From assembly GCA_029838195.1 (NCBI GenBank), contig JALGVJ010000006.1, forward strand, positions 32,001 through 96,000: a stretch of DNA of 64,000 nt. Direction: 5' to 3'. The notes beneath the pieces were generated by a model. That model ran no database searches. It was not told the origin of the DNA and saw only the letters and a program-made list of their open reading frames with translations. Shown piece after piece: positions 52,369-59,920 of this stretch. A program made the position numbers and the translations under genes. Position 1 is the first letter of the stretch; the number at the start of each line of letters is the position of its first letter. This DNA is from Promethearchaeota archaeon. GTDB lineage: Archaea; Asgardarchaeota; Lokiarchaeia; Sigyniarchaeales; SOKP01.

Positions 52369-52656
52369 ATGTGTAATTATTGCGATTGTGAAAACATGCA
52401 TCTTTGTTCCATAGTGGGAACGATTCCTTTAGGCTTTTGTTGCCCAAAATGCGTGTATTATAATGAAGAGCACGCGTGCTATAGATCTCAATGGAACGTG
52501 GAAAGCAGAATTCCTAGTAGCTTGAAAAGTGAATCGGGAAAATTAATATTATTTCCTGAGAAATTTTGTCTTAAAACCGCACGAAACACCCAACTAGAAG
52601 AGCTGAAAGAAGAAGAGACCGAAGAAGAGCTCGAAGTTTATAACGAACATCAATAA
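52369..52656 (+). CDS. Small Cys-rich putative metal-binding protein, paralog 1
   Basis: 8 Cys + His in the first 37 aa, shared with the next gene; acidic tail. Confidence 0.75.
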   Translation: MCNYCDCENMHLCSIVGTIPLGFCCPKCVYYNEEHACYRSQWNVESRIPSSLKSESGKLILFPEKFCLKTARNTQLEELKEEETEEELEVYNEHQ

Positions 52657-52731
52657 ATTAATCTGAAATTAATTTAAAAGGAATTAATCCGGAAGGAATT
52701 AAAGATTAATAATATAAAGGAGTGAAAAGAA

Positions 52732-53004
52732 ATGTGTCAAAATTGTAATTGTGAATTTCGTGAGCAGTGTTCAATCGTCGGGTATATTACCTCGCCCGGA
52801 TTTTGTTGTGAAAAATGTTTTTTATATGATGCGAAACATACTTGCTTACTTTCCCGGACGCACTCAAAACGTGCCGAAGAGAAAAGAGATTTAGAGGAAT
52901 TATGCCCTATTAGCACCAAAATTGAGGGGGGCATTTTAAAAGTGGTAATTGAGCAGAAAGGCAAGAGGATCCCCATTTTAATTGATTTGCAAAAACATTT
53001 ATGA
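52732..53004 (+). CDS. Small Cys-rich putative metal-binding protein, paralog 2
   Basis: Same CxxCxCx5CSIVG..GFCCxKCxxYxxxHxC motif; GGAGTGA RBS upstream. Confidence 0.78.
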   Translation: MCQNCNCEFREQCSIVGYITSPGFCCEKCFLYDAKHTCLLSRTHSKRAEEKRDLEELCPISTKIEGGILKVVIEQKGKRIPILIDLQKHL

Positions 53005-53356: not shown

Positions 53357-53902
53357 GTGAGCATGGAAGAGGAGGAAAGGGGTTTTGTGTTTAAGATTAC
53401 CGTGATTGGTGATGGCGCTGTCGGGAAAACATCCCTTATTAAGAAATACACGCAAGGAAGTTTTCAGAAAGATTATATCAAGACATTAGGAGCACAATTT
53501 TCAAAATATGACGAGAAGATTAATGGAGATAACGTGAAGCTCTTTTTTTGGGATATTGCAGGCCAAGCTGAGTTCATGTTCATGAGGCCAACTTTCTATA
53601 AGGGCAGTAAAGCAGCGATTATCGTATTTTCCCACGGACCGGGTGAAGAAGAGTCATTTAATCACGTAAAAAATTGGCATGACGATATAAAGCAGTATTG
53701 CGGGGATTTACCCGTGATTTTATTCGGGAATAAAATTGATTTGGTGGACGAGAAGGAGTTGAACGATGAGCCGATTAAACAATTAGTTAAGGAGAGGAAT
53801 TTCCTGGGATACTACAAGACTTCTGCGAAAACGGGAGAAGGCGTATACGAAGGATTTCAGACGATCATTAAGGAGTTACATGCGAGATATAAGGACATGT
53901 AA
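53357..53902 (+). CDS. Rab-like small GTPase
   Basis: GDGAVGKT, TLG, WDIAGQ, NKID, TSAK; GGAGGT RBS. Confidence 0.94.
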   Translation: MSMEEEERGFVFKITVIGDGAVGKTSLIKKYTQGSFQKDYIKTLGAQFSKYDEKINGDNVKLFFWDIAGQAEFMFMRPTFYKGSKAAIIVFSHGPGEEESFNHVKNWHDDIKQYCGDLPVILFGNKIDLVDEKELNDEPIKQLVKERNFLGYYKTSAKTGEGVYEGFQTIIKELHARYKDM

Positions 53903-53936
53903 ACATGGAATAACGAATAGCGGCTAAAAGAGGAGA

Positions 53937-54224
53937 ATGACAACAAAACGAGGATATCCTGTTATACTTTTTTTCAGTTCGGCGCATTGTCAGCCTTGCA
54001 AGCCAGTTGAAGAGATGTTGAAAAGGATCAACGTGTCGCTGTTTGGCAAGCGATTGACGATTGAGAAGATAGATATTGAAAAGAATCGGCAGCTGACGGA
54101 GAAGTACAGGATTACGTCCTTGCCGACTTTAATTATTGGGGATCGACGGCTTTCGATCCAGATTCAAGAACAAGAAATCATCGATGCGATCTTGAGTGCA
54201 TTCATTTCTTCAGTGAAGATTTAA
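53937..54224 (+). CDS. Thioredoxin-fold protein (CQPC)
   Basis: FFSSAHCQPC..V, KIDIE, SLPTL cis-Pro loop. Confidence 0.85.
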   Translation: MTTKRGYPVILFFSSAHCQPCKPVEEMLKRINVSLFGKRLTIEKIDIEKNRQLTEKYRITSLPTLIIGDRRLSIQIQEQEIIDAILSAFISSVKI

Positions 54225-54403
54225 AATAAAAATAGAGTTTTTAATCCATGGTCAAAGTAGGTTCATGTGAGGAGAGAAAAAAAAATAACCACCATCTTTG
54301 TTGAAAAAATTTCAGAACATTTAACATGAAAATGAATGAAAAAAAAGAAAAGGATAGAAAATTTAATTAGAATGGTAAAGGTAGCAAGAGGAAAGAAAAG
54401 AAA

Positions 54404-54883
54404 ATGAATCGTGCGTTACTTTCTCAAATTTTGAAAGAGATGAGAGAGCGTTTATTAAAGGGGGAGGAGATAGGCGACATGAAAGTGGGCGCCTTATTAG
54501 CCTTAGGGCATCAGCTCGAGGCGATTTTTTATTATTTAGGGCACGAATTAGGAACGTTTCTTCCTACCCGTGAGGAGAAAGATCCGACGAAGCTTTCGGG
54601 TGCGTTAGAAAAGGTAATACAGGAATATCATGTGGGGGAGGTGCTCATGGAGAAAAACACCCAAGAAATCATTCAGATGAAAATGAAAGGGCATTCCTCC
54701 GTTAAAGATTTAGTGGATAAGGGGATCAAGGCGGAAGGGAATTTTTGCTCGTTTGAAGCAGGGTTGTTGGCGGGTATGGTCGAGAAAATGAGCGGAATAC
54801 ACTGCTTCGCCCAGGAATTGAATTGCAGCTTGCAGACGGGAAAGGAATATTGTCAATTCATGATAGTATTTCAAACGGATTGA
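54404..54883 (+). CDS. V4R-domain protein (H-NOX/Bet3-like fold)
   Basis: YYLGHELG, CSFEAGLLAG, ELNC, CQF. Confidence 0.85.
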   Translation: MNRALLSQILKEMRERLLKGEEIGDMKVGALLALGHQLEAIFYYLGHELGTFLPTREEKDPTKLSGALEKVIQEYHVGEVLMEKNTQEIIQMKMKGHSSVKDLVDKGIKAEGNFCSFEAGLLAGMVEKMSGIHCFAQELNCSLQTGKEYCQFMIVFQTD

Positions 54884-54935
54884 ATGATAAATGATATAAG
54901 GCTAAAAATAGGGATCGTGATCTCTCATCTTTTCT

Positions 54936-55325
54936 ATGGATGATAATAAAGCATTAAAGAAGCATTTGGTTAAATGTCGCACGTGTGATAATTATTATTT
55001 CAAGCATGAATTAATACCTTGCGATATTTGTCAGGAATTTCATTGTCCTGAATGCACCATAATAGCAGGGCGCAAGGGCACCACGTGTCGAACTTGTTTT
55101 AATGATTTGCCGGAGGCAGAACAAAAAGAAATTGCTGCTTTAGCGAAAAAGCTGCGTTTTTGGGCGGGAAAGGGTTATTATTTTTTAATTGTCTTAGTAG
55201 CTGCCACGATGTTTAGTTTTAGCTTGATCCTTTTAAATCGATGGTTTTTCCTCGTGGGACTCGTGTTGGTCGTGATTGATTTTTTTTATGGTTATCGTCT
55301 TTTTAAGTTCCTCTCGAACGGATGA
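54936..55325 (+). CDS. 8-Cys zinc-finger (FYVE/rabphilin/B-box-like) protein with two C-terminal TM helices
   Basis: CRTC-x11-CDIC-x4-CPEC-x10-CRTC followed by two hydrophobic segments. Confidence 0.75.
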   Translation: MDDNKALKKHLVKCRTCDNYYFKHELIPCDICQEFHCPECTIIAGRKGTTCRTCFNDLPEAEQKEIAALAKKLRFWAGKGYYFLIVLVAATMFSFSLILLNRWFFLVGLVLVVIDFFYGYRLFKFLSNG

Positions 55326-55418
55326 AATAAAGGGAGATGTCATTATTTAAAAATGGGAATTCTTACTATTATAATGTAAAAAAAATTATCGAATAATAAT
55401 AGGAAGAAGTTTGCTCCC

Positions 55419-55952
55419 ATGGTAGAGGTAGAACCTAATTTTAAGTTCAAGATCGTGCTTTTGGGCAATCCTGGAGTTGGAAAAACGTCCCTTGTATATA
55501 GATTTATAGAAAATAAGTTTAGAAGCGACTACAAGTCTACTTTAGGCGTGAATTTATTGAAAAAAGAGATAAAGTATAATGAAAAAGTAATTTCTCTTCA
55601 AATATGGGATCTTGGAGGCCAAGAATCTTTTCGATCTTTGCGTAAATTATATTTAGAGGGTTCTCATGGAGGATTTTTAGTTTTTGACTTGACCAATAAA
55701 AAATCTTTTGAGGATCTTCCCGAATGGATGGGGGATTTTAAAAATATTAGAGGAGAGCTTCCTTTAATTCTTATAGGAAATAAACGAGATTTATCCGATA
55801 GCGTTCAAGTAGAGGACGGACAAGTGGAAGAATTTGCAAAAACACATGATTTAACCCATTACATTACTTCAGCAAAAACGGGAGAGGGCGTGGAGGATGC
55901 GTTTTTGGAATTGACTAAAAGTATTTTAGAATTAACCGTCACCAACGTTTAA
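55419..55952 (+). CDS. Rab-like small GTPase
   Basis: GNPGVGKT, TLGV, WDLGGQ, NKRD, TSAK. Confidence 0.94.
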   Translation: MVEVEPNFKFKIVLLGNPGVGKTSLVYRFIENKFRSDYKSTLGVNLLKKEIKYNEKVISLQIWDLGGQESFRSLRKLYLEGSHGGFLVFDLTNKKSFEDLPEWMGDFKNIRGELPLILIGNKRDLSDSVQVEDGQVEEFAKTHDLTHYITSAKTGEGVEDAFLELTKSILELTVTNV

Positions 55953-56171
55953 ATAAATGCCTCATTTTAATTAATACATGATTTTCCATTTTATCCTTCT
56001 ACTCGGACTATTTTATTGGGGAAAATAAATTCATGGTTCTTGTTACTTTCTGATTTTATGATGGAAATGAGCGTGCTTTTATCATCTTATTGAGGATATA
56101 TGGGGATCTATGGCATCATGTACATCTAGATAATACTTCTTTTTTTCAATGAAGGAAAAAATTACCTCTTT

Positions 56172-56459
56172 ATGAAACTTCCGTTTTTTGAGGAGCAAGC
56201 AAGAGAATTTCTAGATGCGTTAATAAAACACCAATGTCCAAGGTGTAGTTCTCGTTTGTTCATGGATGATCAGAGGGATTCGGTGTACGTGTCGTGTAAA
56301 AGGGATTATCATCATTTTAGGATATCAGGGTTTAAAGACTTGTATACGGGAAATCTCGTGTTGATGTATTTTAATGATGGGGAGGAGGGAATAATAAATA
56401 AGAAGCTCTTAAAGAAATTTCAGAAAATCTTATATCGAAGAATTCCAAGAACTTTTTAA
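56172..56459 (+). CDS. Small putative Zn-ribbon protein
   Basis: CPRC ... CKRDYHH. Confidence 0.6.
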   Translation: MKLPFFEEQAREFLDALIKHQCPRCSSRLFMDDQRDSVYVSCKRDYHHFRISGFKDLYTGNLVLMYFNDGEEGIINKKLLKKFQKILYRRIPRTF

Positions 56460-56583
56460 CGGGGAATTTGCAGAAAAATTAAGAATTTATGGAAAAATTC
56501 TACATTTTTTGAAAGATTAATTTTTTAGATCATTTTATAATTTCTTCAGATTTAAGCAAAAAGGAAATAAAGGGAAGATATAT

Positions 56584-57114
56584 TCATTCCAAGGAAATTA
56601 CTTTTAATATGGATTTAATTAAATTTTTGAATGCGTTTTCCACGTTTTCCCCTGTCTTAGCGGAGGTGATGATTAGTTGCAAGTTTAATTTATCCGCATA
56701 TGCTTGAGCTTCTTCTTTTGAAACTTTCATGTTTACTTTTAAATCGGCTTTATTTCCAATAAGTACGAGGGGCCATTTATCTCCGAGGATTTCTCTAAAG
56801 TCATTGATCCAATCCTCTAATTTTTCAAAACTTTTACGGTTGGTAACATCAAACACCACTAATGCCCCATTCGCACCTTCTAGGTACAATTTCCTGAGAG
56901 AACGAAAGGATTCCTGGCCTCCTAGATCCCAGACTTGAGTAGACACTTCATTATTATCAATTTTTAGGTCTTTTTTCATGAGATTTACTCCGAGAGTGGC
57001 TTTATAAGAATTACTAAATGTATTTTCGATAAATCGATGTGCAAGCGAGGTTTTTCCCACATTAGCTTCACCAAGCAAGCAGCATTTCAAAATCCAATTT
57101 TTATCTTCACTCAA
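56584..57114 (-). CDS. Rab-like small GTPase
   Basis: GEANVGKT, TLGV, WDLGGQ, NKAD, TSAK. Confidence 0.94.
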   Translation of the reverse strand: MSEDKNWILKCCLLGEANVGKTSLAHRFIENTFSNSYKATLGVNLMKKDLKIDNNEVSTQVWDLGGQESFRSLRKLYLEGANGALVVFDVTNRKSFEKLEDWINDFREILGDKWPLVLIGNKADLKVNMKVSKEEAQAYADKLNLQLIITSAKTGENVENAFKNLIKSILKVISLE

Positions 57115-59072: not shown

Positions 59073-59711
59073 TTAAAGCATGAGGTAATAACTATCTCTA
59101 TTAGGATTATAAGATATGATTTTCTCTTTGAGTAATGATTTTATCACCGTGGTGATCCAAGAATCGCTGGCTCTTATAGCTTTTTTCAAATCTTTAATGG
59201 TCAATTGATCATTTTGAATAAGGAGGAGAAGAATTTTATTTCTTACACTCAACCGTTTGGAGTTCAAGATTTTCTTAAACCGTTCTTCCATATCAAAAAG
59301 TTTTAATTTTAGGGTCATGACTTCATTACTTAATTTCAATATGACCTCATCCGTGGTTCTAAATACTCTTAAACTGAGATTAAATACTTTTTCCAAGTTA
59401 GCTTTCATGGCTTCTTCCGATTCGGGGTATTTTTCCAATTCTTTATTAAATTCGGCAAGAACTTCCCTATAATCACTACCATTATCATATTTATCCAAGA
59501 CTAATACGATTACTATCTCTTTATTCGGGTTATAAAAAGAAATGGAATTCCAGTTCTCTTCATTCGTAATGATATAAGATTCCACGAAGTTATGGGAGAT
59601 TTGAATCTGCTGAACAATATTTTGGGGAGTTTCTAAATCCTCGGGATATTTCATGTAGACCTCCCCGCCTTTAATCCTATCAAATTTTATGAGAAAAATA
59701 CCCTTAGGGAT
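59073..59711 (-). CDS. uDENN/longin-like domain + coiled coil + winged-helix protein; start extended to ATC
   Basis: The frame extends 19 codons upstream of the called ATG as IPKGIFLIKFDRIKGGEVY-MKYPE; C-terminal KILLLLIQNDQLTIKDLKKAI..WITTVIKSLLKEKII is wHTH-like. Confidence 0.6.
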   Translation of the reverse strand: MPKGIFLIKFDRIKGGEVYMKYPEDLETPQNIVQQIQISHNFVESYIITNEENWNSISFYNPNKEIVIVLVLDKYDNGSDYREVLAEFNKELEKYPESEEAMKANLEKVFNLSLRVFRTTDEVILKLSNEVMTLKLKLFDMEERFKKILNSKRLSVRNKILLLLIQNDQLTIKDLKKAIRASDSWITTVIKSLLKEKIISYNPNRDSYYLML

Positions 59712-59920
59712 TGTACTTCACATCCTCTTTTAACAATTCCTTTTAAATAATCCATAAACTTTATTAACCTATACCATTAGAAACAAGTTGATTCATGCAA
59801 TGCAATTATTCATGTTCATTCCGAAGCTTCCTATATTTTCTTATTTTTCTTAATTATTTAAATGTATCTTAAATCCCAATAGAACTAAAAAAATTTTTAT
59901 ATGTTCGAATAATAGTACAT

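Follow-up and report, generated by a model that had tools for sequence, protein, structure and literature searches.

MglA–MglB is a prokaryotic Ras-superfamily switch that is encoded beside a small dimeric partner, a roadblock/LC7 GTPase-activating protein (GAP). Asgard archaea possess dozens of eukaryote-like small GTPases, almost none of which has been matched to a regulator or effector. The one structural study of Asgard GTPase, roadblock and TRAPPC3 proteins found genome layout unhelpful for such pairing and reported that the GTPase genes of Promethearchaeum syntrophicum MK-D1 are generally not in operons with regulators (Tran et al., 2024). Among V4R-domain proteins, MsvR of Methanosarcina acetivorans (MaMsvR) changes its output with its redox state: C206 controls redox-dependent DNA binding (PMC3729527), and the oxidised protein is re-reduced by the thioredoxin system (PMC7278568). 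Here, we describe a locus in a 64,000-nucleotide stretch of DNA (hereafter the window; G000:C42:32001-96000) from a 4.5-Mb metagenome-assembled genome of Promethearchaeia (Lokiarchaeia), in which a Rab-like small GTPase gene is followed by genes for a thioredoxin and a stand-alone V4R/Bet3-superfold protein. As in MglA–MglB, a GTPase is encoded next to small partner proteins, but the partners here are a V4R protein and a thioredoxin. Set against the general pattern that Tran et al. (2024) describe for MK-D1, this trio, which MK-D1 also carries, is an exception that they did not report.

An open reading frame (ORF) check of the window recovered all seven genes at 53357-57114, and what an earlier sequence-only reading had observed in these 3.8 kb was confirmed. 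The genes are as follows.

53357..53902, plus strand: G1, a Rab-like small GTPase (Pfam Ras, 1.4e-42), the first gene of the conserved trio
53937..54224, plus strand: Trx, a thioredoxin (CQPC; PF00085, 36.5 bits against a cut-off of 23.5)
54404..54883, plus strand: V4R, a stand-alone V4R/Bet3-superfold protein (AlphaFold2 (AF2) fold; four invariant Cys)
54936..55325, plus strand: ZnTM, a predicted 8-Cys binuclear zinc finger with a two-helix membrane hairpin (Cys pattern, hydropathy, AF2)
55419..55952, plus strand: G2, a Rab-like GTPase of the G2/G3-type lineage, more diverged than G3 (Pfam Ras, 2.6e-49)
56172..56459, plus strand: ZnR, a small CxxC...C...H protein (conserved motif; no family match)
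56584..57114, minus strand: G3, a Rab-like GTPase that is closer than G2 to the one G2/G3-type gene present in other genera (Pfam Ras, 1.9e-52)

The locus consists of a conserved three-gene core (G1, Trx and V4R) and local additions, namely ZnTM, ZnR and the third GTPase. The proposal that the seven genes form one module did not hold, given the patchy distribution of ZnTM, the association of ZnR with an acylphosphatase gene and the duplication that gave G2 and G3. Gene order was surveyed with ZnTM, the rarest gene, as the first probe and then with the V4R gene, in three families (f1, to which the window belongs, f2 and f3) of one Lokiarchaeia order. The condition under which the sequence-only reading would have been refuted, a gene order that is not conserved in relatives, does not hold for the core: G1, Trx and V4R stayed together in every relative examined, with a second Rab-like lineage linked to them, whereas the transmembrane finger was present in about seven lineages only, ZnR had come to its place through an inversion, and the third GTPase was a genus-level duplicate.

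G1, Trx and V4R were found together and co-directional in 24 of 25 loci from 17 genera of the three families and in 78 of 80 further loci, and the loci that deviated were those cut by contig ends. G1 lay directly 5' of Trx in the same proportions (24/25 and 78/80), and Trx was always between or beside G1 and V4R in the 25 and 80 loci. In f3, the order was G1-V4R-Trx, and in one genome (G037) G1 was inverted with the trio still together. The trio also remained intact in relatives with a differing upstream flank, and the genes 3' of V4R varied among ZnTM, a GTPase gene on either strand, TBP and an Lrp-like gene. The median gap was 24 nt between G1 and Trx (90 loci), 54 nt between Trx and V4R and 158 nt to the following GTPase gene; the gaps within the trio are operon-like.

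The G1 orthologues, at 50–81% identity, were detected in 131 of 134 f1 genomes, 13 of 14 f2 genomes and the one f3 genome (1/1), and no orthologue at this level was found in f4, f5 or f7. The V4R orthologue, a single-copy gene, was detected in 124/134, 14/14 and 1/1 genomes of the same three families, and a profile search did not find it in f4–f7; elsewhere in the phylum, the E value fell from 1e-64 to 1e-9, indicating distant paralogues only. A profile search with V4R for related loci returned close relatives only. The G1 and V4R orthogroups share one common phyletic range, and neither was found outside the Lokiarchaeia order. Family f2 includes P. syntrophicum MK-D1, Lokiarchaeum ossiferum and Harpocratesius repetitus, and the trio was present in MK-D1 (V4R, DSAG12_02516; QEE16686.1/WP_147663616.1) and in L. 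ossiferum (V4R, NEF87_005024). One Rab-like lineage is tied to a thioredoxin and a V4R/Bet3-superfold protein across the order, with both cultured species included. The trio is very probably a functional unit. No description of it was found in the literature on Asgard and Lokiarchaeia V4R proteins or on FYVE in Asgard archaea, Klinger et al. (2016) not being covered, and no mention of the MK-D1 and L. ossiferum locus tags was found in the literature.

The adjacency could alternatively have been inherited through slow rearrangement in genomes with many GTPase genes, without any functional coupling. The source genome has 43–62 Ras-family genes (62 Pfam Ras matches, of which 43 are strong ORFs), 10–11 of them on this contig; if the 43 ORFs were placed uniformly, three strong GTPase ORFs within 3.8 kb would be expected with P ~0.02. 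Unrelated flanking genes, encoding a winged helix-turn-helix (wHTH) protein, a GIY nuclease and PSTK, are also syntenic across two families, and the general scarcity of GTPase–regulator operons in MK-D1 agrees with chance adjacency. This explanation nevertheless appears very improbable to us: the trio stays intact where both flanks differ, where its own genes are reordered (f3), where G1 is inverted (G037) and where the second GTPase gene has moved, its gaps are operon-like, the G1 and V4R orthogroups share one range, and an independent V4R–GTPase pair is kept in 29 of 29 loci.

This second pair lies at G000:C1:180863-184030 on the minus strand, in a genome with three V4R genes. Its GTPase gene encodes 340 aa, with an additional domain ahead of an Arf-like GTPase (PF00025, 2e-30), and is followed by a V4R-like gene (C1:180863-181456, minus strand; 197 aa) with a V4R match of 8e-7 and a weak TRAPP match of 0.026, which is unrelated to the V4R of the trio. 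The GTPase gene is preceded by one for a protein of 428 aa that ends in a zinc ribbon. The GTPase–V4R adjacency was kept at all 29 relatives' loci. A small GTPase beside a V4R protein is a recurring arrangement in this group, and this recurrence speaks for the two working together, regardless of the chemistry involved. The trio and the second pair provide defined protein pairs that bear on two alternatives, an archaeal origin of TRAPP–Rab pairing or Asgard V4R proteins that simply act as sensors. The third V4R paralogue (G000:C56:64751-65542, 263 aa) exceeds the Pfam V4R cut-off, and its N-terminal ~100 residues look roadblock/longin-like by eye only.

Several further observations concern the trio and its orthologues. 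In f2, a gene for a stand-alone Lrp/AsnC ligand-binding (RAM) domain (PF01037, 1e-14) lies directly 3' of V4R, as at L019:7864-8112 in MK-D1, and occupies the place that is taken in f1 by ZnTM or the second GTPase. Orthologues of V4R and G1 carry short stop-bearing inserts at fixed sites in otherwise well conserved sequences, and the copies in the window are uninterrupted. In V4R, inserts of 39, 39 and 30 nt follow GALLA|LGHQ in L153 (G157), L155 (G035) and L154 (G006), respectively, and G133, G145 and G093 show the same single-TAA flag or a split match. In G1, inserts of 30 nt at WDI|AGQ and 27 nt at KITV|IGDG were seen (L156 (G016), L157 (G074)), and L014 (G013) has two frame-breaking inserts. 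When the three V4R inserts were folded, the flanks paired exon to exon around an internal hairpin, like bulge-helix-bulge mini-introns. Inspection of the AT-rich spacers of the trio region by eye gave nothing decisive. The only public run labelled as RNA that contains the MK-D1 locus was considered as evidence of co-transcription and rejected: it gave one contig of ~39 kb with flat depth and looks like DNA.

The V4R protein scored 23.7 bits against the Pfam family, under the gathering cut-off of 31, and DUF2507 was also below its cut-off; precomputed annotation assigns both PF02830 and PF10702 to most of its orthologues. The AF2 model (predicted local distance difference test (pLDDT) score, 88) has the V4R/Bet3 fold. 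On realignment, the VIA Z scores to sensor domains were 14.8 for PoxR, 14.3 for MopR and 13.9 for MJ1460, and those on the TRAPP side were 13.4 for Trs33, 13.3 for Bet3, 13.2 for Naegleria TRAPPC3 and 12.6 for Thor-TRAPPC3 (PDB 7yh3). The shared fold with Bet3, stated in the sequence-only reading, is confirmed in the predicted structure (Z 12–13.4 to Bet3, Trs33 and TRAPPC3). At differences of ~1 Z unit, the model lies as near to the sensor V4R domains as to TRAPPC3, or very slightly nearer to the sensors. Searching PDB sequences with the V4R profile retrieved MJ1460 only (E 0.004) and no Bet3.

Four cysteines of V4R (C115, C134, C141 and C150) were invariant in an alignment of 16 sequences, as were segments including GHE, FCSFEAG and CFAQE. 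The cysteines are spaced by 19, 7 and 9 residues, and C206, C225, C232 and C240 of MaMsvR by 19, 7 and 8. Only the C-terminal V4R half of the NCBIfam MsvR model (NF053755) aligned (4.5e-9, 36 bits against a cut-off of 220), and no HTH domain was matched in the V4R protein by Pfam, so it is not an MsvR. The V4R domains of MsvR and of the window protein are alike in the correspondingly spaced conserved Cys, and MsvR of M. acetivorans is the client of a thioredoxin system; MsvR differs in having an N-terminal HTH and DNA binding as its output, whereas the window protein is a V4R domain only, conserved in its linkage to the genes for a GTPase and a thioredoxin of its own. In this thioredoxin, the most divergent of three in the genome, the CxPC motif is conserved across orthologues (CQPC in the window) and an S/T-[LV]-P-[TS] cis-Pro loop is visible. 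The thioredoxin and the MsvR-like Cys pattern speak no less for a redox or ligand sensor than for a guanine nucleotide exchange factor (GEF).

A related possibility is that V4R takes up a small hydrophobic compound, whether lipid, hydrocarbon or aromatic, in its cavity and passes the signal to G1, with the four cysteines holding a structural zinc and the thioredoxin only keeping the site reduced or serving another client. The closest folds are the phenol-binding sensor domains of PoxR, MopR and DmpR, and GHE, FCSFEAG and CFAQE contribute invariant polar and aromatic residues that could form the lining of a pocket. Bet3 occurs palmitate-bound. For Asgard TRAPP/V4R proteins, Tran et al. (2024) concluded that ligands are probably bound and that the zinc site has a structural role. 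No ligand can be inferred for the window protein, however; a dedicated, co-inherited thioredoxin would be unexpected for a purely structural zinc, and MsvR provides a precedent for a redox switch at the same Cys positions. We consider this form of sensing unlikely. The two MK-D1 TRAPPC3/V4R proteins modelled in that study (WP_147663132.1 and WP_147661794.1) resemble the window V4R in organism group and superfamily and have predicted zinc sites and homodimers; the MK-D1 orthologue of the window V4R (WP_147663616.1) is a third protein, absent from their discussion (Tran et al., 2024).

The reading that we prefer, with evenly balanced confidence, is a thiol- or ligand-gated GTPase switch around G1, Trx and V4R. 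V4R, probably a dimer like other V4R/Bet3-fold proteins, would act as the sensor; its four-Cys site (a zinc-thiolate or a disulfide), its ligand cavity or both would shift with redox conditions or a small molecule, and the thioredoxin of the operon would reset it by reduction. The nucleotide switch G1 would read the state of V4R or be controlled by it, so that V4R would be a regulator or an effector. The second Rab-like lineage, represented here by G2 and G3, would be a linked, separately transcribed second switch, and in a few lineages ZnTM, inserted just 5' of the second GTPase, may give that switch a fixed membrane site at the cytoplasmic face. We infer the interactions and the redox gating from gene identities, folds, residues, linkage and the matching phyletic ranges.

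Several points weigh against a gated switch of this kind. The Cys pattern may be purely structural and the link to the thioredoxin coincidental, because the equivalent site holds a structural zinc in Thor-TRAPPC3 and PoxR (Tran et al., 2024). The gap between Trx and V4R in the window is 179 nt, which is long for an operon. The wHTH, GIY and PSTK neighbourhood is likewise syntenic across f1 and f2, and part of the conservation could be inertia; the compared genomes are kin, and the samples are therefore not independent. ZnTM cannot be essential to the module, because it is absent from most trio-bearing genomes. A weaker point is that a search for longer proteins found no fused GTPase-V4R or Trx-V4R protein.

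Membrane placement is the part of the locus for which ZnTM is of interest. ZnTM carries four CxxC pairs, eight Cys in all, separated by 11, 4 and 10 residues, and two hydrophobic helices follow. The eight cysteines (C14, C17, C29, C32, C37, C40, C51 and C54) and an FWAxxGY motif were invariant in 10 sequences. The AF2 model (pLDDT 87) shows a beta-rich finger at residues 10-56 and helices at 60-99 and 103-128 that form a hairpin, with hydropathy peaks at ~91 and 105-113. From hydropathy and the flanking basic residues, both ends of the protein, and hence the finger, are predicted to be cytoplasmic.

Foldseek gave nothing significant for ZnTM (all E>0.3), and in a wide structure search without Foldseek, helical hairpins took up the list, which therefore told nothing about the finger. 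When the Foldseek candidates were realigned, the VIA Z scores were 5.9 for RIM (root mean square deviation, 1.7 over 49 residues), 5.8 for Slac2-a with Rab27B, 5.1 for the RUFY FYVE finger, 5.0 for Slp4, 4.9 for the Vps27 FYVE finger, 4.7 for Hrs, 4.5 for EEA1 and 3.9 for rabphilin; in all, about 20 FYVE-type fingers scored 3.9–5.9, and PHD fingers scored lower. In a language-model feature search, the look-alikes were B-box and prokaryotic RING fingers, with a score (0.83) that is weak. Neither Pfam FYVE (PF01363) nor FYVE_2 (PF02318) matched ZnTM at E<=0.1. ZnTM shares with the FYVE and Rab-effector fingers (EEA1, Hrs and Vps27; rabphilin-3A, RIM, Slp4 and Slac2-a) the eight Cys grouped as four CxxC pairs and the central spacer of 4 residues, and its predicted finger aligns with theirs over 49–55 residues. 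Unlike them, it has none of the WxxD, R(R/K)HHCR and RVC lipid-binding motifs, with K-x-x-F/L-x-x instead of RRHH before the second Cys pair, no SHD helices and no SGAWFF-type Rab-binding motif, and a two-helix membrane hairpin serves as its anchor. The FYVE-like label of the sequence-only reading may therefore stand for the modelled shape (Z ~4–6) and not for lipid-binding motifs or Pfam membership, and 'FYVE-shaped binuclear finger' seems a fair name for the modelled domain.

Clear ZnTM orthologues were found in five other f1 genomes only. The gene is rare: a collection of 5.8 billion proteins held 8 clusters of it, and one of 1.84 billion held 12 representatives (E<=1e-10). By pattern scan it was present at 9 of 106 loci, equal to 6 distinct genomes, and about seven lineages have it in all. 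Every copy seen has the order V4R, ZnTM and G2/G3-type GTPase. One metagenomic copy is only 25% identical, and its neighbours V4R and GTPase are 79% and 60% identical, respectively. Because every copy lies in the same place, even this divergent one with its conserved neighbours, ZnTM is a fast-evolving accessory gene at a fixed position. It is a rare, small and tractable candidate for placing an unprenylated GTPase at a membrane. Two weak ZnTM-like matches, P0160 with unrelated neighbours and P0166 on a 1.6-kb contig with no informative neighbour, gave no GTPase link and were set aside.

The sequence-only reading had also pointed out that the three GTPases have no C-terminal Cys for prenylation, and this was borne out: the last 15 residues of G1, G2 and G3 contain no Cys, and a prenylation motif is absent from all three. 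Translations showed all G motifs intact in the three proteins, with G1–G5 of G1 including DIAGQ, NKID and SAK. The closest solved structures in PDB were Rab23, Rab21 and Rab35 for G1 and Rab11, Rab21 and Rab6 for G3.

These features allow a proto-TRAPP interpretation, in which the Rab-like GTPases would have V4R as their Bet3-like exchange factor, or as a component of that factor, and ZnTM would be a rabphilin-like membrane receptor that replaces prenylation. V4R aligns to Bet3 inside TRAPP-Ypt1 complexes at Z 11.7–12.0 (3cue_E, 7kmt_F), its operon linkage to a Rab-like GTPase is conserved and a second V4R–GTPase pair exists, the best folds of ZnTM include the Rab-effector fingers of RIM, Slac2-a, Slp4 and rabphilin, and the GTPases have no prenylation Cys. 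Bet3/TRAPPC3, Trs33/TRAPPC6 and Thor-TRAPPC3 likewise share the alpha/beta superfold (Z 12–13.4) and an association with Rab-like GTPases, and Thor-TRAPPC3 also has a four-Cys zinc site. On the other hand, V4R is at least as near to sensors (Z 14–14.8 against 12–13.4), Pfam TRAPP (PF04051) gave no match to it at E<=0.1, and the operon contains no longin gene. The TRAPP exchange surface needs the longin subunits Bet5 and Trs23, and we know of no archaeal V4R protein with exchange activity. The sequence-only reading had treated V4R as GEF-like or a sensor, and of this, the Bet3 fold stands, while the comparisons with sensors, Pfam TRAPP and longin partners go against the exchange-factor part. 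The proto-TRAPP interpretation also gives no role to the thioredoxin, which is conserved as much as V4R; most trio-bearing lineages have no ZnTM; and the finger is without the rabphilin-type flanking Rab-binding helices and motif and without a Pfam FYVE or FYVE_2 match, with the feature search favouring B-box and prokaryotic RING fingers instead, albeit weakly. We regard this interpretation as unlikely.

A bolder form, which seems to us decidedly unlikely, would make the V4R dimer a direct, thiol-gated regulator of G1 (an exchange factor, or GDP dissociation inhibitor- or GAP-like) and ZnTM the membrane receptor for the neighbouring unprenylated GTPase. If it were true, V4R–G1 would be a living relative of the step that gave rise to the Bet3-based TRAPP–Rab pairing, and ZnTM with its GTPase would be the first prokaryotic system of a Rab and an effector at a membrane.

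Returning to the gated switch around the trio, its linked second Rab-like lineage is represented in the window by two genes. G2 and G3 are 56% identical and are mutual closest paralogues, the next paralogue being at 40–44% (40–42% for G2), so the third GTPase copy arose by local duplication. Besides the window genome, both genes are present only in the same-genus genome G001, and the pair is a genus-level duplicate. G2/G3-type orthologues (54–70% identity) constitute a second conserved Rab-like lineage linked to the trio. In f1, the gene lies 3' of V4R, on the same strand in 51 loci and on the opposite strand in 28; in f2, it lies 5' of G1 in MK-D1, L. ossiferum and G053, and none was found within 6 kb of the trio in four f2 genomes. 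As a side observation, contig C42 carries ~10–11 of the genome's Ras-family genes (10 of the 43 strong ORFs), including a divergent pair at C42:133845-135590, and four pairs of strong Ras-family ORFs lie <=3 kb apart against 1.2 expected, ~3.4 times the number under random placement.

ZnR has a conserved CxxC...C...H motif and no family match in Pfam or NCBIfam; the Zn-ribbon label is plausible for it from these residues. Its orthologues were found in genera g1, g6 and g9 only. In relatives, it follows an acylphosphatase gene (AcP) and shares its strand, which is not that of the operon; ZnR and the GTPase gene converge there, and in some other genera TBP is next to the ZnR and acylphosphatase genes. 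Relative to G001, where the order is G2+ G3+ ZnR- AcP-, the segment with G3 and ZnR (56172-57114) is inverted in the window. ZnR is a neighbour and not a module member, and it lies beside G2 only through this inversion.

The wHTH gene mentioned above lies at 59073-59727 on the minus strand and is syntenic with the trio in f1 and f2; Pfam gave only a weak C-terminal wHTH match. Its f2 orthologues (216–287 aa) start with a GIFIIDWDEYEGGIISLKYP-type segment, which the ATG called in the window would cut off, and the missing segment fits an upstream non-ATG start. A longin/DENN-like fold was suggested for the N-terminal domain of this protein and could not be confirmed, with only the weak wHTH match in Pfam. 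On the other side, 5' of G1, a tandem pair of small Cys-rich proteins without a family match is encoded at 52369-53004 on the plus strand; it lies outside the conserved module, and the same-genus genome alone has kept it (identities, 65% and 73%).

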